NCBI GenBank assembly: GCA_965221125.1
Contig: CBDCRW010000007.1
Span: forward strand, 352,001-416,000
From: Alphaproteobacteria bacterium
GTDB lineage: Bacteria > Pseudomonadota > Alphaproteobacteria > UBA828
Length of the DNA: 64,000 nt
Direction of reading: 5' to 3'
Position 1 is the first letter of the stretch. Each line of letters begins with the position of its first letter. Shown here piece by piece: positions 6,982-31,948 of the stretch. The notes under the pieces are model-generated. The model made no database searches. It saw nothing but the letters and a program-made list of their open reading frames with translations, and was not told the DNA's origin. The translations under genes were made by a program, and so were the position numbers.

Positions 6982-7023
6982 TCCTGAGGGCGGGGCTTGC
7001 GTCCCGCGCCTGAGCCCTGCGGC

Positions 7024-7518
7024 TCAGCGCTCCGACTGCGCGTGGGCCTCGACCAGCCAGAGGTTCTTGTCGATGTCGCGCGAGACCTCGACGAAGAGGT
7101 CTTCGGTGTCCGCGTCGCCCGCGTCGCCGGCCTCGGCGATGGCGGCGCGGATGCCCTTGCCGAAGGTGGCCAGCGCGACGCTCACCGCTTCGACGTGGTC
7201 GGCGCCCGACGCGATCTCCAGCGGATAGGGGGGGAGCGCCGAGTCCGCCGCCGCCACGGCCGCCGTGCCGCGCGCGGTGCCGCCCATCACGGTGATGCGC
7301 TCCGCCAGGTTGTCGACGTGGCCCTGGACGGCGACGTGGATCGCGTCGAAAAGCTCGTGCAGCGCGATGAAGGAGGGGCCCTTCACGTTCCAGTGGGCCT
7401 GCTTCATTTGGGTCGCAAGGTCCACGGCGTCGGCGAGGCGCGCGTTCAGCAGCTCCACCATCGCGGCCCGCGTGTTGTCGGCAATGTCGATCTTCGTGGG
7501 GTGCAGGGTCTGTGACAT
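7024..7518 (-). CDS. dps: DNA starvation/stationary phase protection protein Dps
   Basis: KQAHWNVKGPSFIALHELFD and DNLAERI ferroxidase motifs; C-terminal DKNLWLVEAH. Confidence 0.96.
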   Translation of the reverse strand: MSQTLHPTKIDIADNTRAAMVELLNARLADAVDLATQMKQAHWNVKGPSFIALHELFDAIHVAVQGHVDNLAERITVMGGTARGTAAVAAADSALPPYPLEIASGADHVEAVSVALATFGKGIRAAIAEAGDAGDADTEDLFVEVSRDIDKNLWLVEAHAQSER

Positions 7519-7662
7519 GACGATGTTCCTTTTCTGACCGGGCCGCGGTGGCTGCCGCGCCGCCACGAGTGATGTGGTTATTCTGCGACTAATGTGCAAC
7601 TGGGGACAGCCTGACTCCCAAGCATATCACTCATGCGCGGGGCGCTGGCCGCGCCGTCCCCG

Positions 7663-8196
7663 TCAGGGCGCCCCCCGCATGTAGCGCCGCGCGGCGCTGG
7701 GGGAGAGGGCGAGGCGGGCCGCGATCTCGGCGGCCGTCGCCCCGGCGGCGGCGAGGTGGAGCGCACAGGCGCGCCTGGCGCGTGGCAGGTAGACGCTGCA
7801 GCCGCCGAGATAGTCCGCGACCTTGAGCGCCGTGCCCTCCGCTTCCAGCAGGCGGGCCAAGGGGTGGTCCGGGTGGCGCGCGAGGTGAAGCGGCTTCGGG
7901 ATGTGCACCTCGCGCCCGCCCCAGGCCAATGCCATCGCGATCGCGGTGGGCCGGCCTGCGACGTCCTCGATCTCTTCCAGAATGCCGGGGAGCGTGCCTG
8001 CGTGGTCCCTAATCGATCGTCTCCGAGGTGTGCATGGCTGCCGCGCGGGCGAGGCCCGGTGCGGGCGGAGTCGCAGGATGCGCCGGGCGGCGGCCGAGCG
8101 CTTTCTCGCGCGGTGCGCCGGCCTTGCGGATGCACGCGCCGAGGTGGCGGATCGGCTCGGCACGTGCTGCGGGCCGGCGCGGCGTCCGTTCCTCAT
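7663..8196 (-). CDS. Mor/C-like phage transcriptional activator (Mu-like)
   Basis: LPGILEEIEDVAGRPTAIAMALAWGGREVHIP...YLGGCSVYLP plus C-terminal HTH (TAAEIAARLALSPSAARRY); N-terminal ~65 aa is low complexity, so the start is uncertain. Confidence 0.7.
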   Translation of the reverse strand: MRNGRRAGPQHVPSRSATSARASARPAHRARKRSAAARRILRLRPHRASPARQPCTPRRRSIRDHAGTLPGILEEIEDVAGRPTAIAMALAWGGREVHIPKPLHLARHPDHPLARLLEAEGTALKVADYLGGCSVYLPRARRACALHLAAAGATAAEIAARLALSPSAARRYMRGAP

Positions 8197-8735
8197 GCCG
8201 CCTCCGCCGGTGCTGCGTCGTCGAGCAGGGCGGCGACGACGCGGTCGAGATCGTTGCGCCCGGCGGCGATGGTGACCTCGTCCGTCGCCTTCTCGACGGT
8301 GACGCCGATCTGCGCCAGCTCGGCGGCCGGCAGCTTGCGCAGCGCGGCGCGGTCGAGCGTCTCCCGCACGCGGATCAGCGCGTCCGCTCGGTCGGGGAAG
8401 CGCTCGCGCAGCCGCCGGATCGCCTGCGCCTCGTCGCCCAGCGCCACGGCGCCCGGCTGCTTGCGGAGCCCGAACTTGACGCCGTCCACCGCGAGCGTTC
8501 GCGGGCTCACGAAGAGATCGGGGCGCGCCTGGATCGCGGCGCGCAGCGCGTCCTCCGACGCCGCCTGCTCGGCGATGCGGTTGCGGAGCGCGCGGAGGCG
8601 GCCGGCAAGCGCCTTCTGCTGCGACGCCTTGATGTCCTCGGCCAGCGCCTCCGTCGCTTGCCGTGCGGCGGCGAAGGTCCTGGCGAGGGCGACGATGTGG
8701 TCCATAGACGCCGGCGGTGCCGCAGGTCTGGTCAT
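8193..8735 (-). CDS. Mu Gam-like host-nuclease inhibitor family protein
   Basis: Coiled N-terminus, then PDLFVSPRTLAVDGVKFGLRKQPG and LIRVRETLDRAALRKL...LAQIGVTV, the pattern of Mu-like Gam proteins. Confidence 0.7.
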   Translation of the reverse strand: MTRPAAPPASMDHIVALARTFAAARQATEALAEDIKASQQKALAGRLRALRNRIAEQAASEDALRAAIQARPDLFVSPRTLAVDGVKFGLRKQPGAVALGDEAQAIRRLRERFPDRADALIRVRETLDRAALRKLPAAELAQIGVTVEKATDEVTIAAGRNDLDRVVAALLDDAAPAEAA

Positions 8736-8748
8736 CGGGGTCTCCCTT

Positions 8749-9006
8749 TCACTTTTCTTGAGAAATTTCGCTGGCAGGCGCCGGGCGGGGGATGCCGGCG
8801 GGCCAGTCGCGGCCGTCGGGCCATCGCTCGGACGCGCGGCGCAGGATGGTCTCGGCGCGCCGCGCGGTGATGCTGGCGCCGGCGGCGACGCGGTCCACCG
8901 TGTCGCCGCTGCCGGTGAGCAGGCGCGAGGCGTAGGAGACGGAGATGCCGCGCGCCGCCGCGAAGGATCGGATCAGGGTGATGAGCAGTTGATCGCCGTG
9001 CACCAT
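8749..9006 (-). CDS. Small Cro-like phage DNA-binding protein
   Basis: Divergent from the CI-like gene; ISVSYASRLLTGSG helix pair and C-terminal WPDGRDWPAGIPRP seen in alphaproteobacterial prophage cro-position proteins. Confidence 0.65.
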   Translation of the reverse strand: MVHGDQLLITLIRSFAAARGISVSYASRLLTGSGDTVDRVAAGASITARRAETILRRASERWPDGRDWPAGIPRPAPASEISQEK

Positions 9007-9080
9007 CGAACACATATGCACGAACACGCATGATCGAATCAAGCATTTTCATGCACGAACAGTTGTGCTATATTGTGCAC
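9007..9080. promoter_or_regulatory. Divergent cI/cro promoter-operator region
   Basis: AT-richer 74-bp gap; direct repeat ATGCACGAACA at 9016-9026 and 9051-9061; TATATT 6 nt before the cI ATG (leaderless arrangement). Confidence 0.6.
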
Positions 9081-9974
9081 ATGGCGAACGCGACTCGACC
9101 GAGCGAGCAGATCCGCCACGCCGTGCGCGAGGCCCTGGCGGCGGCCGGCGTGGGCGCGCGCCGCTTCGAGTCCGCCCACGGGCTCAGGCCCTGGGCGCTG
9201 CGCGGCATCCTCGATCCCACCCGCGAGCAGGCGCCCTCGGTGGACCGCGCGGCCGAGATCTGCGCGGCGCTCGGGCTGACGCTCTCCATCGAGCCGGCCG
9301 CCGCGTCGCGCGCGGGCGAGGGGGATGACGCGGCGCGCGCGGCGCTGTCGGAGCCGAAGGCCGCTGCCTGGGGCGGCGCCGCGCAGGTCTCGCCGCCAGC
9401 GGCGGTGCCTGTGGGCGGCCTCGAGGGGGCGGTGCAGGCGCTGGTGCGGCTGGTGGCGCGCGCCGGGGGCGATCCGATCCCGGACGAGCTGCGCGCGCCG
9501 CCGAGCGCGCGTCTCGCCAGCGCCGATGCGCGGCCGGTCGCGGCGGCCAACGACGACGGCGTGACCCCCGGCGCGCGCTCGGTGGGAACCCGCGAGGTCG
9601 AGGCCGCGGCGGGCGGCGGCGCGGTCAATCTCGACGAGGCGCCGGTCAAGGGGCCGGTCTGGTTCCGCCGCGACTGGCTCGACGGCCACGGCATCGACCC
9701 CACGCTCTCGGTGGTGATCTCGGTGCGGGGCGAGTCGATGGAGCCGACGCTGCCGGCCGGCTCCAAAATCCTGGTGGACCGCACGCGCACCCGGCGCCGG
9801 GCCGGGCGCATCTTCGTGGTCACCACGGAGGAGGGGCTGGTGGTGAAGCGGCTGGAGCGGCGCGGGCGGCAGTGGTTCCTCGCCAGCGATCACCCGTCGT
9901 GGGAGGCGGTGCCCTGGCCGCGCGAGGCTGAGGTGGTGGGCGAGGTGCGCTGGGCCTCGCGGACCTTCGCGTGA
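9081..9974 (+). CDS. Phage CI/LexA-like repressor with S24 autopeptidase domain
   Basis: N-terminal HTH (APSVDRAAEICAALGL), Ala-Gly site in EAAAGGG, catalytic Ser in VRGESMEP and Lys in LVVKRL. Confidence 0.88.
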   Translation: MANATRPSEQIRHAVREALAAAGVGARRFESAHGLRPWALRGILDPTREQAPSVDRAAEICAALGLTLSIEPAAASRAGEGDDAARAALSEPKAAAWGGAAQVSPPAAVPVGGLEGAVQALVRLVARAGGDPIPDELRAPPSARLASADARPVAAANDDGVTPGARSVGTREVEAAAGGGAVNLDEAPVKGPVWFRRDWLDGHGIDPTLSVVISVRGESMEPTLPAGSKILVDRTRTRRRAGRIFVVTTEEGLVVKRLERRGRQWFLASDHPSWEAVPWPREAEVVGEVRWASRTFA

Positions 9975-10522
9975 TGGCCCGCGCGGCCCTGATCGTCGCC
10001 TTCGCCGCGGTCGTGCTGGCGGCGTGCAGCCCGGCCACGCACGTCGACGGGCACAAGATACGCGCCGGCGCGGCGTCGGCCGACGCCCTGCACGAGGGCG
10101 CGCCGGAGTGGTTCGCCGCGTGGTGGGGCGACTACCGGCGGCACGCAGGGAACGGCTACGCGGTGCTCGCCCTCGACCGCAACGGGCAGGGCGGCTGGTA
10201 CGTCTACTGCGGCACCGTCGGCTGCCACGTCCTCGACCACGTCTCGGTCGGGGCGATCAGGGACGTCCACTACAGGTATCCGGCGCTGGAGCACTGCCGC
10301 GAGGCGGTCGCGAAGGCCGGCTCCGCCACGGCACCGGACTGCGCCATCTACGCGATCCGAGGCACGATCGTCTGGCAGGGTCCGCTGCCGTGGGAGGGCG
10401 CCGGAGATTCCGCGATGCCCTCCGGGAAGCACGCAGCCACCGGCGCCACGGCCGATGTCGTGGGCCCGAGCATGGCGCTCGACATGCTCGCGTTCTGGCG
10501 CGTGAAGTGGTCGGCGGACTGA
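9974..10522 (+). CDS. Hypothetical lipoprotein coupled to cI
   Basis: Lipobox VVLAA-C after a hydrophobic signal; start overlaps the cI stop; four further Cys. Confidence 0.7.
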   Translation: MARAALIVAFAAVVLAACSPATHVDGHKIRAGAASADALHEGAPEWFAAWWGDYRRHAGNGYAVLALDRNGQGGWYVYCGTVGCHVLDHVSVGAIRDVHYRYPALEHCREAVAKAGSATAPDCAIYAIRGTIVWQGPLPWEGAGDSAMPSGKHAATGATADVVGPSMALDMLAFWRVKWSAD

Positions 10523-10535
10523 AAGCGGTGCTGTC

Positions 10536-10777
10536 CTAGAGCGATTTCCGATCTTACTGGATCGTGGCGGCCCGAACCGCCGCCCCACCTCCCCCTGTCC
10601 CCCTCCCCCCGGAGGGCGGAGGGGGGACGCCAGTCGCGCCGGCAAGTTCTCCCTCTCCGCCCCTGGGGGCGGAGAGGGGCGGGGAGAGGTGGGGGATTCT
10701 TTTCTGGCCGCACGGCATGTGAGGGCGTCACCCTGCGGCAACCGCGATCGATTCCAACTGGTCGGATAGTGCCCTAG
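10536..10777. mobile_element. MITE-like element bounded by CTAG and carrying a family A core
   Basis: Begins CTAGAGCGATTTCCGATCTTAC and ends GGATAGTGCCCTAG; sister copy at 22189-22425. Confidence 0.75.
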
Positions 10778-10835
10778 CTGGAGCGAGTCCGTCTTCTGCG
10801 GGCTCTCGACAGGCCGTGAGCGATAAAGAGAAACA

Positions 10836-10886
10836 CCGGACCATGGTGCGGTGCACGGGCCGGGCGGGCGCGCCCATGATCGCCCC
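10836..10886 (+). promoter_or_regulatory. Candidate activator-dependent late promoter of the lysis cassette
   Basis: CCGGACCATGGTGCGGTGCACGG, then CATGAT, 6 nt, ATG; same architecture at 32114-32167. Confidence 0.5.
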
Positions 10887-11375
10887 ATGCAACGGGCGAT
10901 CCTCGAGCGGCAGCACGAAAGCGACCAGGGCACGCTGGGGCTCCTGAGCGGCCCCGGCCTTGCGCCCGTCTTCGTCATGGAGCCGCCCTGGCGCGGCAAT
11001 GCGCGCAACCGCTCCTGCATCCCCGCCGGGCTCTACGAGGTGGTGCCGCACCTCTCGCCGCGCCACCGCCGCTGCCTGCTGGTGACGCAGGTGCCGGGCC
11101 GCAGCCACATCCTCTTCCATGCCGGCAACCTCGGCGGCGACACGGAGCGCGGCTGGAAGACCCACACGCAAGGCTGCCTGCTGCCGGGCCTCCGCCGCGG
11201 GCGCATGACCGTGGACGGGCGCCGCCAGGCGGCGGTGCTCGCCTCGCGCACGGCCTTCCGCCACCTCATGGACTGGAGCGCGGGGCGGCCCTTCGTATTG
11301 GAGATCAACCCGCCCTCAAGCAGCGAAGCGACAGGGCGAACTCCGCCCTCAAGCAGCGAAGCGATAGGGCGATAA
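10887..11375 (+). CDS. DUF5675-family protein, putative phage endolysin/peptidase
   Basis: GTLGLL...MEPPW...SCIPAGLY...VPGRSHILFHAGN...TQGCLLPG; sits directly upstream of a holin. Confidence 0.8.
   Translation: MQRAILERQHESDQGTLGLLSGPGLAPVFVMEPPWRGNARNRSCIPAGLYEVVPHLSPRHRRCLLVTQVPGRSHILFHAGNLGGDTERGWKTHTQGCLLPGLRRGRMTVDGRRQAAVLASRTAFRHLMDWSAGRPFVLEINPPSSSEATGRTPPSSSEAIGR
11310..11372. repeat. Tandem duplication of a 30-bp hairpin unit in the 3' end of the DUF5675 gene
   Basis: CCGCCCTCAAGCAGCGAAGCGAYAGGGCGA at 11310-11339 and 11343-11372. Confidence 0.85.
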
Positions 11376-11385
11376 GGAGTGAACC

Positions 11386-11913
11386 ATGCTTGAGACCCTC
11401 TTCAATCTCGGCGCCTCGGTGCTCACCGGCGGCGCGACCGGGCTGCTGGGCACGGCGCTTTCGGCGGTGGTGGACTTCTTCCAGTCGCGCCAGCGCCACG
11501 CCCAGGAGCTGGACCTGCGCCGGCTCGATATCGATCTGGCGCAGGCCGAGGCCGAGGGCGCCGCCGCGCACGCCGCCATCGAGGCCCGCGCCCAGCGCGA
11601 GCGGGCCGAGTGGGAGGCGCTCGAAGCCTCGTACCGGGAGGCCGGCCGGCGCTGGTCCCGCCCCGGCGAGGGCCGGCTCATGCAGTTCGTGGACGCCGTG
11701 CGGGGGCTTACGCGGCCGGCGCTCACCTGGAGCCTCTTCGCCCTGGTGGGCGCGATCTACTTCCTGCTGGGGGCTGCGGACATCACGACCGTGGGGCTCC
11801 GGCCCCGCATCGTCGAGACCGTGCTCTACCTCTTCACCGCCGCGATGCTCTGGTGGTTCGGCTCCCGTCAGATCGAGAAGCGGCGCGGCGCGCAAGGCGG
11901 GGCCGGCCGGTGA
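11386..11913 (+). CDS. Holin, 3TM/GTA-holin-like
   Basis: Glycine-rich hydrophobic N-terminus, VRGLTRPALTW, TM segments, terminal WWFGSR; RBS AGGAG. Confidence 0.78.
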   Translation: MLETLFNLGASVLTGGATGLLGTALSAVVDFFQSRQRHAQELDLRRLDIDLAQAEAEGAAAHAAIEARAQRERAEWEALEASYREAGRRWSRPGEGRLMQFVDAVRGLTRPALTWSLFALVGAIYFLLGAADITTVGLRPRIVETVLYLFTAAMLWWFGSRQIEKRRGAQGGAGR

Positions 11914-12296
11914 ACGACCTCGAGACCTGGATCGCGCGCGGCGTGGTGGGCGCCGTCGTCGGCGCCTGCGTCGGGCTCTTCGTCCGCGTGCGCCGGCTCG
12001 AGTCCGCCGGCGCGGTCGCCAGCAAGAGCCTGGGCGATCTCGAGAGGCGCGACACCGGCGTGGGCGCGCTCGGCGCGCGCATGGAGACGGTGGAGCGCGG
12101 CCTGGTCAAGCTCTCCGCCGCGCTCGAATCCCTGCCCGATGCGCGCGAGTTCGCCGCGCTCGGCCGCTCGGTCACGGCGGTGCAGGGGGAGATCGCGGCG
12201 CTCCGCGCGACGCTCGACGGCATGGACAGGATGATCGCCGGCCTCGACAAGCAGCTCGACCAGATCAACGCCCACCTGCTGGCGGGCAACCCATGA
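11910..12296 (+). CDS. DUF2730-like membrane-anchored coiled-coil protein of Mu-like lysis regions
   Basis: N-terminal TM, LESLPDAREFAAL...VQGEIAALRATL...INAHLL; GTG overlaps the holin stop. Confidence 0.65.
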   Translation: MNDLETWIARGVVGAVVGACVGLFVRVRRLESAGAVASKSLGDLERRDTGVGALGARMETVERGLVKLSAALESLPDAREFAALGRSVTAVQGEIAALRATLDGMDRMIAGLDKQLDQINAHLLAGNP

Positions 12297-12612
12297 TCGG
12301 GGCCGGGGGGCGCGGGTAGGGGACAATTTCCGCAGGACGCGCACGGGAGTGGCGGGCGGACCCGCTCAGGGGACCAGCCCCGGCGCCGCGTGGCGGTCGA
12401 GAGCCCAGGAGGCAAACGGTGGCCGCCCGCGGCACCGGGGCTTTGTCCGCCGCCGGCCCGGGATCGGTCGCAACGCCGCGACTACGCTACGGCCGGCCCA
12501 GCGAGGACAGGGATACCGGCAGCGGACCGATTCATTATCCCGCAATTCAAGCATGTAGAACAGACAAAATGGCATGCCGGACATGATATGACGGCTCTGC
12601 CTGTTCGACAGA

Positions 12613-13008
12613 TCACGGCCGCCGCGCCAGCAGGTCGATCTCGACGCGGGCATCGAGGGCGAGTCCGGTGACGCCGACGCAGGTGCGTGCCGGGCGCCGC
12701 TCGGGCTCGAAATAGGTCTCGTAGACGGCGTTCATGGCCGCGTAGTCCTCCTTGAAGCGGGTGAGATAGACCCGCGCGACGACGACGTGTTCGAGCCCGA
12801 GGCCGAGGGAGGCGAGCACGGTCCTCAGGTTGGCCATGACGTTCCGCGTCTGGCCCTCGATGCCGGCGGGGAGCGGCGCGGCCTCGTCCTCCGGGTCATT
12901 GGGCATCTGGCCGGTGACGAACACCCAGCCGTCCGCCTCCACGGCGTGGCTGAAGGGCGCAACGGGCGTGGGCGCGCCGGCCGCCATGTGAAAGATCGGT
13001 GCTGTCAT
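12613..13008 (-). CDS. RidA/YjgF family protein
   Basis: PFSHAV...FVTGQ...MNAVY..YF...PARTCVGV..L...ARVEID. Confidence 0.93.
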   Translation of the reverse strand: MTAPIFHMAAGAPTPVAPFSHAVEADGWVFVTGQMPNDPEDEAAPLPAGIEGQTRNVMANLRTVLASLGLGLEHVVVARVYLTRFKEDYAAMNAVYETYFEPERRPARTCVGVTGLALDARVEIDLLARRP

Positions 13009-13152
13009 GGGGATCCCCTTGTCTCGGTCGCGCCAGCGGGCGCGCGAAAGCACAGGACGGCCGACTGCCGTGAGCGAAAAATTCTAGATCGATTCCGTCC
13101 AGGACGGAAACGATCTAATCTTGCGCAAGGCAGGCAAGGAGAAGGGCTCCTC

Positions 13153-14055
13153 ATGCGCGTGACGCGCCGGGCGGTGCTGGTCGGGGCGGGTGCCGCGCTG
13201 GCTGCGCCCGTGCTCAAGGCCCCGGCCGCGCAAGCGCTCGCCAAGCGCATTCCGGCGACCGGCGAGCCGGTGCCCGCGGTCGGCATCGGCAGCTGGATCA
13301 CCTTCAACGTGGGCGACGATCCGCTGCTCCGCGCCGAGTGCCGCGCGGTGATGGCCGCCTTCTTCGAGGAAGGCGGGGGCATCGTCGATTCCTCGCCCAT
13401 GTACGGCTCCTCGCAGGCGGTGATCGGGCATGCGCTGGAGACGCTGGGCCAGGCGCCAGGTCTCTTCTCCGCCGACAAGGTGTGGACCGACGCCTCGGAC
13501 GGCCCGGCGCAGATTGCGGAGACGAGCCGGCGCTGGGGCGTCGGGCGCTTCGACCTGCTGCAGGTCCACAACCTGATCGACTGGGAGGCCAATCTCGACA
13601 CCCTCGACGCCATGAAGGCGGCCGGCCGGCTGCGCTACACCGGGGTCACCACCTCGCACGGGCGCCGGCACGCGGAGCTGGAAGAGGCGATGCGCCGCCG
13701 GCCGCCCGACTTCGTCCAGCTCACCTACAACGTCGTGGACCGGGAGGCGGAGCGCCGCCTGCTGCCGCTCGCGCTGGAGCGCGGCATCGCGGTCATCTGC
13801 AACCGGCCGTTTCAGCGGGGCCGCCTGCCGGACCGCCTTGCCGGCCGTCCGCTGCCCGGCTGGGCCGGCGAGATCGGGGTCGTCACCTGGCCGCAATTCC
13901 TGCTGAAGTTCATCATCTCGCACCCTGCGGTCACGGCCGCCATCCCGGCGACGCGGCAGGTGGACCACGTGCGCGAGAACAAGTCCGCCGAACGCGGCCC
14001 CATGCCGGACGCGGCCCTGCGCCGGCGCATGGCGGAGCATGTGGAGAGCCTGTAG
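13153..14055 (+). CDS. Aldo/keto reductase with Tat-like signal
   Basis: TRRAVL signal; DSSPMYGSS, DLLQVHNL, AIPAT. Confidence 0.9.
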   Translation: MRVTRRAVLVGAGAALAAPVLKAPAAQALAKRIPATGEPVPAVGIGSWITFNVGDDPLLRAECRAVMAAFFEEGGGIVDSSPMYGSSQAVIGHALETLGQAPGLFSADKVWTDASDGPAQIAETSRRWGVGRFDLLQVHNLIDWEANLDTLDAMKAAGRLRYTGVTTSHGRRHAELEEAMRRRPPDFVQLTYNVVDREAERRLLPLALERGIAVICNRPFQRGRLPDRLAGRPLPGWAGEIGVVTWPQFLLKFIISHPAVTAAIPATRQVDHVRENKSAERGPMPDAALRRRMAEHVESL

Positions 14056-22425: not shown

Positions 22426-23139
22426 CCGCCCTCACATCGCTTCGGGGAAAGGCGGGCCGCCCCCGGCGTAGCGGGAGCAGCCCGGAAATCGCAAACGTTT
22501 TACGCCGTCATCATGGTCGGCGGCTGCACCTGCGTCATCAGGTCGTGGTTCCACTCGCCGTCGACGACGACGGTGGCCAGACAGCCAAGCTGGACCGCCT
22601 CGATCAGGTTGTGGGAGAGGTACACGTAGACCCCCGACTGCAGGAAGGTGTAGAGCGCCGCCCCGGCCGAGCCGCCGCGGATGAACCAGGTCTCCAGCCC
22701 TTCCGCCGGCGGGTCGACGAAGGAGCCCTGCTCCCACACATAGTCGCCGTGTCCGCCGATGAGATGCGGCCGGGAATCGCGGTTGGCCTGGGAGTGGATG
22801 AACAGCACCGATTCGCCGACGTTGGCCGTGAGCGTGTTGTCGCCGGTGAGCGCGCCGACCCGGCCGTTCAGCACGACGTGGGTGGGCGTGAGCGTCTGCA
22901 TGACGTCGAACATGTCCGCCATGCCCTCGCCGTGGTCGGCGTAGTCGATGAAGTCGCCGTCGGCATCGCGGGGTACGTAAAAGTCCTGCTCGCCGATGTA
23001 ATAGGCCCGGTCGTAGCCGAGCGCGTTGCCGTGGCGGTCCTTCAAGCCGTCGCGCGGCAGCACCATCACCGCCCCGTTCATGCCCGAGACGACGTGGAAG
23101 GGGATCATCGAGCCCCCCGGCGCGCAGTGGTAGATGTAG

Positions 23140-24752
23140 CCCGAATTATTCATGGCAGGTCTGGTTTTGGGGTGGCGGACGTAGCGTAAGTCGTTGCCAT
23201 CGGGTAGGAATTCGTTGCCGAGGCGTCTTCCTCTCCGAACAACGAAAATGCCACGCCCGCCATGACCGACGATAGTCTTCTTCCCTTCGATCTGCCAAGC
23301 GTCCAACGCAAGAAGGTGAGCGCCGCCTTCGACGGCGGCCTGATCTCGTCTGACGGCGGCCTCGTCCTGCTTCGTGAGGCGGAACGCAGCTTGCGCCTGG
23401 CCGAGACCCTGGCCGGCTGCATCCGCGACCGGCGCAAGCAGGCGCAGGTGATCCACTCGCTCTCGGCCATGCTGCGCTTCCGCATGTTCGCCATTGCGTG
23501 TGGCTACGAAGATGCCGACGACTGCGACGCGCTGCGCGCGGACCCTCTGTTCAAGCTGGCCTCAGGCAAGGCGCCGGAGAGCGGCCGCGCACTCTGCTCC
23601 CAGCCGACCATGAGCCGCCTGGAGAACGCGCCGTCTCGTATCGAGGTGGCGCGCATGACGGCGGCGCTGGTCGATCTCTTCTGCCGCAGCTTCCAAGCCC
23701 CTCCCGCCGCCATAACCCTTGACATCGACGACACCTGCGATGCGGTGCACGGCCACCAGCAGCTCTCGCTCTTCAACGCTCATTACGACACGCGCTGCTT
23801 CCTGCCCGTCCACGTCTACCATGTGGAAAGCGGCAAGCCGGTGGCGGTCCTCCTGCGCCCGGGCAAGACGCCGTCGGGCCCTGAGGTCCGCACCCTCATC
23901 AAGCATCTGGTCCGCCGCATCCGCCGCCACTGGCCGCACACCCGGATCGTCTTCCGCGGAGACAGCCACTACGGCCGCCCGGAAGCCATGGCCTGGTGCG
24001 AGGAGAACGGGGTCGACTACATCTTCGGCCTCGCGGGCAACCGCGCGCTGCACGCGCTCGCATACGAGATGGCCGACGATCTCAAGGTGCGCCGCGCCAA
24101 GGCCGGCGCAGACAGGATGCGCAGCTTCACCGCCTTCGACTACGCCGCCCGCTCCTGGAGCTGCGAACGCCGGGTCGTCGCCCGGCTCGAGGCGAGCACC
24201 CGCGGCTTCGATGCCCGCTATGTCGTCACCTCACTCAAGGGCGAGCCCCGCCATCTCTACGAAGACATCTACTGCGCCCGCGGCCAGGCCGAGAACCTGA
24301 TCAAGATGCACAAGGGCCAGCTCGCCTCGGACCGCACCTCCTGCCAGAGCCCGCTCGCCAATCAGCTCAGGCTGGTCCTCCACACCGCAGCCTACTGGCT
24401 CATGCTCGCGCTGCGCGACGCCATTCCCCGCGCCGCGCCGCTCGCCCGTGCAGAGTTTGCAACCCTCAGGCTGCGCCTCCTCAAGATCGGTGCCCGCGTC
24501 ATCGAGAAGGCCACCCGCATCCGCATCCACTTCGCCTCGGCCTGCCCCGACGCCGCCCTCTTCCGCCTGCTCGCAGGCCGCCTCGCCGCAGCAGGCCCAT
24601 GAGCGACGGGGCGGCGTGCCCCAATCACCCAGGCTCCATAAACCATCAACCCGATAACGACCATCCTCAGTTCCCGACGCCAAACCGCGTCAGGCCCCGA
24701 CGCGCCCAATCAACCGAGCATCAAGTGCAAGGCAGTCCATGAATAGGTCGGG
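23140..24752 (+). mobile_element. IS1380-family insertion sequence
   Basis: Terminal inverted repeats CCCGAATTATTCATG / CATGAATAGGTCGGG; GTAG target duplication at 23136-23139 and 24753-24756. Confidence 0.93.
23262..24602 (+). CDS. IS1380-family DDE transposase
   Basis: [50 protein letters not shown]. Confidence 0.95.
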
Positions 24753-25341
24753 GTAGGTGCCGGGCTTGGTCGCCTTCCAGCGCAGCATGACCTGCTCGCC
24801 GGGCGAGACGAGCGTGAGCGCGCCGCCGCCGAGCGCGCCGGTCGACGCGTGGAAGTCGATGTTGTGCTCGAAGACGTTGCTCTCCGGGTTCTTCAGCGTG
24901 AGCTCGATGTAGTCGCCTTCGTGGCAGATCATCAGCGGGCCGGGGATCGAGCCGTTGAACGACAGCGTGTTGAGCATGGTGCCGTCGTCGTCGATCTCGC
25001 GCTTGTCCTCGGTGGCGGTGAGCTCGACCTCGATGATCTTGGGCCCGTCCATGGCGACCTGCTCATGGGCCGGCACGAAGGGCGGAGCGACGAGCTCCTG
25101 CTTCACCCTGGGAAGGCCGCTCAGGTCCACCTCGCTGGCCGAGGCCAGCTTGATCGGGACCGCGGCCGAGGCGGCGCCGAGGGCGCCCCCCATCTTCAGA
25201 ACGTCGCGCCTGTTCACGTGCAGCATGGCTGGTGTCTCCTCCTCGACGGTTGCCCCAACGCGTGTGCTCGACGCGCCCGAACGAGGATCGCCCCCAAGCC
25301 AGCCCATCGGACAGGTCACGGAGACGGCCCTTGAGCGCTTG

Positions 25342-30916: not shown

Positions 30917-31003
30917 GCCCGCGTGGCGGAATTGGTAGACGCATCGGACTTAAAATCCGTTGGCCTTCGGGCCGTCCCGGTTCGAGTCCGGGCGCGGGCA
31001 CCA
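30917..31003 (+). tRNA. tRNA-Leu (anticodon TAA)
   Basis: GCCCGCG acceptor stem, GGAATTGGTAGAC D arm, CTTAAAA loop, long variable arm, GTTCGAGTC, encoded CCA. Confidence 0.97.
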
Positions 31004-31902: not shown

Positions 31903-31948
31903 GGCGGCCCTGCCCACTCCCCGGACGATGGTGCGGTGCACGGTGCTG

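Follow-up and report, generated by a model that had tools for sequence, protein, structure and literature searches.

What does a bacterial chromosome hold when the repressor, the late activator and the lysis genes of a Mu-like phage lie side by side, with no gene for transposition or for a particle among them: a complete device, or one arm of something larger? The question is raised by eight genes at positions 7663-12296 of the DNA stretch analyzed here (the window), which is 64,000 nucleotides (nt) long and corresponds to C7:352001-416000, C7 being contig CBDCRW010000007.1 of an alphaproteobacterial genome that we label G000 (its congeners carry other G-numbers). The module is flanked by dps (7024-7599, minus strand) and ridA (12613-13053, minus strand). 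Its leftward genes are a mor-like gene, gam and a small gene at the position of cro, while its rightward genes encode a CI repressor of the S24 type, a lipoprotein, a DUF5675 protein, a holin-like protein and a DUF2730 protein. The original prediction, made from the sequence of the window, saw here a minimal circuit of switch, activator and lysis genes that stands alone. Our results indicate instead that the module is probably the regulatory and lysis arm of a larger, transposase-less element of B3/Mu type, which is GTA-like (GTA, gene transfer agent), genus-wide and locally decaying. Its host lineage comprises most of one genus of uncultured Rhodospirillales-like alphaproteobacteria, in which it is inherited vertically.

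Virion loci and conservation across the genus

Family calls on the open reading frames (ORFs) with Pfam and PHROG gave no transposase, replication or virion gene inside 7663-12296, in agreement with the original prediction, but virion genes are present on the same contig outside the window. Using the proteins of a true Mu-like prophage from the congener G002 as tblastn queries, we located TerL, portal, protease and capsid genes on C7 in two loci, one on each side of the module. The left one (C7:342-346 kb, ~14 kb from the module) carries TerL and a Portal_Mu fragment separated by an RTX-repeat gene. The right one (C7:424.6-437.6 kb, ~60 kb from the module) is a head-tail cluster for which PHROGs and Pfam annotation gave a head protease, a scaffold, a gpT-type major head protein, a virion morphogenesis protein, a major tail protein, a tail chaperone, a tape measure of 259 amino acids (aa), a small tail protein and a J-like tip protein. 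Parts of the element are up to ~80 kb apart, with host genes in between. Neither the element loci nor the rest of G000 yielded a homologue of MuA, MuB, prophage-type TerS or F; only the true prophages of G002 gave matches to Phage_Mu_F and the 846-aa MuA type.

In two congeners the parts are not separated. Head/tail or TerL genes directly follow cI and the lipoprotein gene in G003 and G002, contiguous with the module at the same locus, and these genomes count against a stand-alone circuit; the original prediction had itself named relatives carrying a full prophage here as evidence of that kind. It had also expected particle genes to be encoded elsewhere, and in this it was right: the same 17-nt box stands upstream of the lysis genes and of the packaging, head and tail genes.

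Both virion loci are kept across the genus at 72-91% nt identity. The capsid gene was detected in 17 of the 21 genomes of the genus, including G000, and in none of 28 genomes from 13 other genera of the order; its frame is open in 16 congeners, at 92-97% aa identity. Selection was measured as the median pairwise ratio of nonsynonymous to synonymous divergence (dN/dS, Nei-Gojobori), which was 0.10 for the capsid and lay between 0.13 and 0.39 for the remaining structural genes (12 virion genes in all). A table of 25 genes by 15 species showed near-complete virion sets in about 10 species; the mor row was left out of it, and the conservation of mor was taken from tblastn of the loci and from the dN/dS of its core.

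Regarding the module, we searched the DNA of 41 related genomes and compared 14 loci from 13 congeners by tblastn. The same eight genes, in the same order, adjoin dps in 10 of these 13. As for the exceptions, G003 is rearranged around dps, G002 is split over two contigs, and G019 keeps little beyond the lysis genes (76-84% aa identity), most other parts being gone. A comparison of the gene order next to dps and ridA in relatives had been suggested; the dps side was recovered, but ridA is the right-hand neighbour in only one of the 13 congeners (G020), and ordinary metabolic genes follow DUF2730 in G014 and G008. Values of dN/dS ranged from 0.18 to 0.37 in the module, compared with 0.13-0.16 for three host flank genes of similar dS (0.3-0.5). 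By gene they were 0.18 for the mor core, 0.30 for gam, 0.30 for the gene at the cro position, 0.26 for cI, 0.37 for the lipoprotein, 0.26 for the DUF5675 core, 0.18 for the holin-like gene and 0.18 for the DUF2730 core, the last calculated without the stretch of ~100 codons where a different frame encodes the holin. With this order and these values, the claim of conservation rather than random decay holds. The distances of the element and of its flanks were also correlated (r=0.90 over 66 pairs and r=0.95 over 21 pairs), and only 6 of 5000 permutations in a Mantel test were as high.

Conservation extends to non-coding DNA. A GC-rich segment of ~200 nt after DUF2730 (12377-12580) shares 85-92% nt identity with its counterparts in 10 relatives; G003, G002 and G019 match it more weakly or only in part, and indels of 1-2 nt occur. 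It separates the lysis genes from TerL in G003 and G019. Folding predicts two long hairpins, with compensatory change at only 2 of 48 pairs, and the segment has no Rfam match. It could be a candidate small RNA, a terminator or attenuator, a pac-like site or a terS remnant.

The RTX gene between TerL and the portal late box (C7:342958-344304) encodes 449 aa with HemolysinCabind repeats and a serralysin C-terminal domain. It was detected by protein match in G000, G014, G005 and G004 and by DNA match in G010, has a dN/dS of 0.44, and may be cargo of the element.

Switch, late box and lysis genes

Pfam and PHROG searches confirmed the eight genes and the families named for them, two of these below the Pfam cut-off, with some corrections. 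The mor-like ORF (7663-8196, minus strand, 177 aa) matches phrog_836, ‘late transcriptional activator’, at 2.1e-13 over 112 residues, and falls below the cut-offs of Pfam Mor (PF08765, 22.5 against 24.9 bits) and HTH_23 (24.2 against 24.6 bits); the part that aligns with relatives is a conserved Mor core at ~7663-7989 (minus strand). The Gam-like gene (8193-8735, minus strand), of the Mu host-nuclease inhibitor and DNA-end protection type, matches phrog_491 and PF07352 (34.1 bits, 3.3e-8, above the cut-off of 28.3). The small gene at the ner/cro position (8749-9006, minus strand; maximal ORF 8749-9042) starts at an ATG, 9004-9006, that is conserved in a 13-species alignment. It matches phrog_7669 (4.5e-18), a PHROG of unknown function, and no Pfam family, so that ‘Cro-like’ is right for its position but not for its family.

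On the plus strand, the CI-type repressor (9081-9974; maximal ORF 9030-9974) carries a C-terminal, LexA-like S24 domain (PF00717, 56.7 bits, 2.3e-15; phrog_4). Self-cleaving repressors of the S24 type are defined by an Ala-Gly cleavage site, a Ser nucleophile and a Lys general base. All three, the Ser within GESMEP and the Lys within VVKRL, are retained in 13 of 13 orthologues, as had been claimed for the window copy; CI is best described as an S24-type repressor with self-cleaving residues, for which cleavage is predicted. Residues 1-180 match no Pfam helix-turn-helix family; this region is highly conserved. The lipoprotein gene (9974-10522, plus strand; maximal ORF from 9971) encodes a signal peptide and a LAAC lipobox, has no Pfam or PHROG match, and sits after cI wherever a relative has cI (12 of 12). 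Its start overlaps the cI stop (TGATG), and it is predicted to be translationally coupled to cI. This is one of three same-strand start/stop overlaps, the others being gam/mor-ORF and holin/DUF2730. A fourth had been counted between cro and cI; it exists only between maximal ORFs and is lost once the conserved starts (9006 and 9081) are used.

Between those two starts lies the divergent switch region (9007-9080), with repeated (A/G)TGCAC words and two -10-like hexamers, each 6-7 nt before a start codon (ATG). It is nearly invariant in the 13-species alignment over long runs such as TGTGCTATATTGTGCACATG. We infer that it may contain two promoters for leaderless mRNAs with operators between them. 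A LexA (SOS) box was also considered in the switch and rejected, as the GAAC repeats of G000 are not conserved in relatives.

The link between the module and the virion loci is the 17-nt box. Upstream of DUF5675 it stands at 10840-10856 (plus strand) as ACCATGGTGCGGTGCAC, and is followed by an 18-nt spacer, the hexamer CATGAT, 6 nt and the ATG, so that the putative late promoter spans 10840-10886. In 12 relatives the box is invariant, the next 18 nt vary, and a CATGAT-like hexamer again lies 6 nt before the ATG. An invariant box with a variable spacer and a hexamer is a promoter signature, and suggests a late promoter. G000 repeats this architecture before the portal fragment and before the head protease gene (I), where 47-48 nt separate box and ATG. 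Allowing 0-1 mismatch, relatives carry the box before DUF5675 (13/13), the portal (12/12) and the protease gene (11/12); it was not seen before the protease gene in the G006 piece, and in G019 it precedes TerL. There are 24 exact copies in G000, 6 in G020, 2 in G003 and none in three complete element-free congeners (G016, G017 and G012), and the box was not found in the lysis region of the G002 prophages. The box contains a perfect 8-bp palindrome (dyad ACCATGGT) and a GTGCAC word that recurs in the switch.

Other occurrences of the box were seen. Two one-mismatch boxes lie at window positions 31925 and 32118, 193 bp apart and ~1 kb past the single tRNA gene of the window, tRNA-Leu (30917-31003). 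Upstream of TerL, a variant box faces a MetE-like host gene that has an AT-rich promoter of its own.

The three remaining genes form the lysis cassette (plus strand). The DUF5675 protein (10887-11375; maximal ORF from 10851; PF18925, 86.8 bits, 1.2e-24, cut-off 26.7) has no hydrophobic, SAR (signal-anchor-release) or signal segment, and its variable C-terminal tail includes a 33-nt tandem duplication (11310-11372) whose length and repeat number differ between species. Residues H78, G80, N81 and T94-x-G96-C97 are invariant, and presumably the H78...T94-x-G96-C97 pattern resembles the YkuD motif. Compared by hhalign with two YkuD domains of the same genome, using shallow profiles, DUF5675 gave probabilities of 0.2-1.1%. 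A 2026 preprint proposes a C82 (YkuD)-like fold for DUF5675 (10.64898/2026.04.11.717860). Judged from its position and the papers cited here, DUF5675 is a candidate soluble endolysin.

The holin-like membrane protein (11386-11913) matches phrog_6637 (2.7e-20) and phrog_3427 ‘holin’ (3.7e-5). It had been described as a holin with three transmembrane (TM) segments; the holin match stands, but at the threshold used only one segment is strongly hydrophobic (aa 110-138) and two are weaker, so that three TM segments are not firm. The DUF2730 protein (11910-12296; Mu gp25 ‘releasin’ family) has a GTG start overlapping the holin stop, matches PF10805 at positions 40-92 of the profile only (21.5 bits, below the cut-off of 24.9), and contains a TM segment (aa 6-30) and a coiled-coil tail, with 84-97% identity in relatives. 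Passages of PMC9239132 describe Mu gp25 as a membrane-tethered releasin needed to free the SAR endolysin, place a DUF2730 gene within five genes of the endolysin in 34 of 34 transposable phages examined, and list an L,D-transpeptidase-like protein as candidate endolysin of Vibrio phage Martha 12B12. The DUF2730 gene of the module lies within two genes of DUF5675, in line with the arrangement given in those passages. The Mu lysis cluster (gp22 SAR endolysin, gp23/23.1 spanins, gp25) likewise has a DUF2730 protein with an N-terminal TM segment near the endolysin; unlike it, the module has a DUF5675 protein lacking a SAR or signal segment, a holin-like protein, and no recognised spanin.

Decay in the source genome

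The copy in G000 is damaged. By blastn against G020, ~680 bp of gemA have been deleted, with 7-nt microhomology at the junction (8146-8152); relatives have a GemA-like ORF of ~200-280 aa between gam and mor. The frame opened by the gemA start codon, itself overlapping the stop of gam, now runs through ~50 out-of-frame codons before it reaches mor. Because the deletion joins the gemA start to mor, the 177-aa ‘mor’ ORF is a gemA'-mor fusion, of which only aa 69-177 align with relatives (72-90% identity). The codon at the normal mor start is GTG in G020 and ATT in G000. Contigs of four sequencing runs were compared with the window and were informative only for the join of run X1 across the gemA junction, which one X1 contig spans with 0 differences; X1 is possibly the source sample.

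A second change lies between the lipoprotein gene and DUF5675, where a dispersed GC-rich hairpin repeat resembling REP or MITE sequences (repetitive extragenic palindromes or miniature inverted-repeat transposable elements) is inserted at 10537-10780, with an inverted repeat at 10583-10694. The insertion is absent in most relatives, which have ~50 nt between the two genes. Many copies of the repeat occur in G000 and congeners, another of them just upstream of TerL (C7:~345920-346030). Rfam, run over 7000-13200, gave only a chance match to a microRNA model (E=0.61), inside this repeat.

Regarding the virion genes, the portal has an in-frame internal deletion and a shortened end, with 48% left, and a ~3-kb deletion removes a 556-aa tail protein and an NlpC/P60 tail peptidase. 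The protease/scaffold gene is interrupted by an insertion sequence (IS) at C7:425217-426836. This IS (~1.6 kb, 446-aa transposase) has at least 10 identical copies in G000, one of them in the window at 23137-24756 (C7:375137-376756), and 91-93% identical copies in congeners; the identical copies point to recent IS expansion. Particles are unlikely in G000. What is still open is the switch, the lysis cassette and Mor in its fused form, and at most switch and lysis can work.

Origin, possible function and competing explanations

In Mu itself the lysis genes follow mor in one direction, unlike in the module, and their position across cI had been taken as unusual. However, it is no sign of rearrangement, as the record of Pseudomonas phage JBD67 (NC_042135.1) shows the same layout as native to B3-like siphophages (Beetrevirus): leftward from the regulators come Mor, GemA, Gam, B and A, and the rightward arm has holin, endolysin, terminase, portal, protease, scaffold and capsid. 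The element shares this divergent layout, with Mor, GemA and Gam ending the leftward operon, and the best phage matches of its capsid are B3-like phages (39% aa identity over 98% of the length). Among the hallmarks of the Mu/B3 type it has Gam, GemA (in relatives), Mor, a Mu-type portal, a protease/scaffold and a gpT-type capsid, while the DDE transposase A and the ATPase B are absent. It further differs from B3-like phages in lacking Mu F and a recognised TerS, in having DUF5675 as endolysin candidate and an S24 repressor co-directional with the late genes, and in being spread over up to three host-inherited loci.

G002 carries true Mu-like prophages, with the 846-aa transposase and Mu F, at C1:190000-213000 and C6:~495-515 kb of its genome. 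One of them, rearranged but with its transposase, shows the canonical order: cI, divergent from a cro-like gene, then A (846 aa), B, gam, gemA and mor, followed by a gene for a secreted protein, DUF5675, holin, terS, TerL, portal and F. The gam, mor, DUF5675 and holin of these prophages are 53-74% identical (aa) to those of the element. An inversion of the cI-to-mor segment relative to this order was considered and dropped, since B3-like phages natively show the observed layout.

The simplest history is that a B3-type ancestor lost A/B and other early genes, and that host rearrangements later dispersed its late genes. G003 and G019 keep the lysis genes, the conserved non-coding segment and TerL in one row. 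As a working mechanism, CI would hold the leftward operon (the gene at the cro position, gam, gemA and mor) off, and its loss, probably through RecA-stimulated self-cleavage, would allow Mor to be made. Mor would then turn on the boxed late promoters; alternatively, CI leaving GTGCAC-containing sites would do so. Capsids and tails would assemble, and the putatively muralytic DUF5675 protein, the holin-like protein and the releasin-like DUF2730 protein would lyse the cell. The particles would carry host DNA, as GTAs do, because the element has no transposase, replication genes or recognised TerS and lies in up to three loci.

In order to contextualize this scheme, two kinds of known system can be compared. 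In pyocins under PrtR/PrtN control, an S24 repressor acts on an activator, which acts on particle and lysis genes. The element shares this logic, but neither of the parallels that had been drawn with it carries over: the activator is of the Mor type rather than PrtN, and a particle with capsid, terminase and portal is not a tailocin. GTAs of the Rhodobacter capsulatus type (RcGTA) resemble the element in that a head-tail set is fixed in a lineage under purifying selection, with scattered lysis genes and no self-replication, and the short tape measure (259 aa) is also RcGTA-like. Unlike RcGTA, the element has a Mu-type portal, protease and capsid, no PF04860 portal, and CI/Mor in place of CtrA/GafA-type regulation. 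The RcGTA properties used here are general background beyond the review passage we draw on (PMC8987985). As in GTAs, the phage genes are fixed, vertically inherited and under purifying selection, with linked flanks as the yardstick of co-divergence, and homology searches for MuA/MuB together with the separation of the parts indicate no recognised capacity for replication, excision or transposition as a unit.

Several points weigh against reading the module as an arm of a GTA-like element. No TerS was recognised and no Mu F homologue was found in the element, so that packaging competence is uncertain even in species with the full set. The putative muralytic role of DUF5675 gained no support from a PDB profile search, whose best hit had an E value of 0.22. 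Production of Mor in G000 would need either the fusion protein or initiation at an ATT codon. Four of the 15 tabulated species (G000, G004, G013 and G019) carry an incomplete element, and its loss is ongoing. The box is not exclusive to late genes: ~15 of its copies in G000 head a dispersed non-coding repeat whose first bases resemble the late promoter and the first DUF5675 codons, and the ORFs that follow look non-coding, with low-complexity, repeat-derived peptides. Moreover, the box may be either a Mor activator site or a CI operator. Finally, the yardstick genes for co-divergence are physically linked to the module, and the genus is known only from metagenome-assembled genomes.

Hence, one could argue that the module is, after all, a stand-alone domesticated lysis switch, serving altruistic lysis or the release of vesicles or cell contents, with virion genes that are irrelevant or decaying. 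The state of G000, with an intact switch and lysis cassette alongside a portal, a protease and two tail genes that are broken or missing, would fit this explanation, as would the cassette retained in G019 after the loss of most else and the position of the holin-like and DUF2730 genes among the most constrained (dN/dS 0.18). We nevertheless consider it unlikely. About 10 species keep the full virion set under equal or stronger constraint, as the capsid illustrates, the box before the lysis genes also precedes the portal and head blocks, and virion genes come directly after cI and the lipoprotein gene in G003 and G002. Nor is the circuit itself pristine in G000, where gemA and the normal mor start are gone.

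If the damage is instead taken as the rule, the element would be an old defective prophage drifting to loss with no host-level function, and its conservation a matter of recent ancestry. Patchy damage in G000, G004, G013 and G019, the IS and repeat insertions, and loci rearranged differently between species are what such drift would leave. However, median dS has reached 0.3-0.65, yet dN/dS stays at 0.10-0.39 in the virion genes and 0.18-0.37 in the module, frames are open in most species, and non-coding control is conserved as well, both in the switch and in the late box with its variable spacer; drift is quite improbable on these grounds. The remaining explanation is a still-mobile phage or satellite that borrows the transposase or packaging functions of a helper. 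The missing TerS and F could indeed come in trans, and related true Mu-like prophages coexist in at least one congener, G002. Against this, 10 of 13 species have the module at the same chromosomal site next to dps, the parts lie among host genes up to ~80 kb apart, divergence parallels that of the flanks, the late box was not found in the lysis region of the G002 prophages, and no ends and no convincing flanking att direct repeats were found around the module. We regard this explanation as highly improbable.

According to these results, a GTA-like element seems to be the better account, and a more specific version of it can be put forward tentatively. It may be a GTA that evolved independently from a B3/Mu-type siphophage, having lost MuA/B, F and TerS and kept a CI(S24)-Mor cascade. 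One late box would drive the scattered lysis, portal and head-tail units, the whole would be fixed in a sponge-metagenome-associated genus, and the dispersed repeat of G000 might add Mor- or CI-responsive sites. To our knowledge only a handful of independent phage-to-GTA domestications are known, none of them from a transposable Mu-type phage, and our literature searches found no report of a Mu-derived GTA. If true, the ancestral regulators (an SOS-cleavable CI and Mor), the lysis cassette and a candidate late promoter would all be readable from sequence, and the regulatory rewiring of a domesticated phage would become directly testable. Intact and decaying copies in about 15 species would form a natural series. 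DUF5675 and DUF2730 would also be placed as a candidate lysis pair under long-term host-level selection.

A few further phage-like or transposon-like sequences were noted elsewhere in G000. A 457-aa transposase ORF with Mu-transpos_C (PF09299) is present in 20 identical copies (e.g. C4:891715-893043), with an ATPase-like ORF beside the one copy examined (C4:890915-893043); it is an IS-type element and not a phage MuA. Regarding an HK97-type GTA elsewhere in the genome, we found no PF04860 portal and a single weak Phage_capsid match (30.8 bits) at C6:781975-782310, in a 393-aa open frame beside an IS copy. A second, isolated pair of a cro-like gene (38% aa identity) and an S24 repressor gene (34% aa identity) lies among host genes at C4:875814-877021. 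We rejected it as part of the element, as its full length is shared only with G020 (83% nt identity), and regard it as an accessory remnant.

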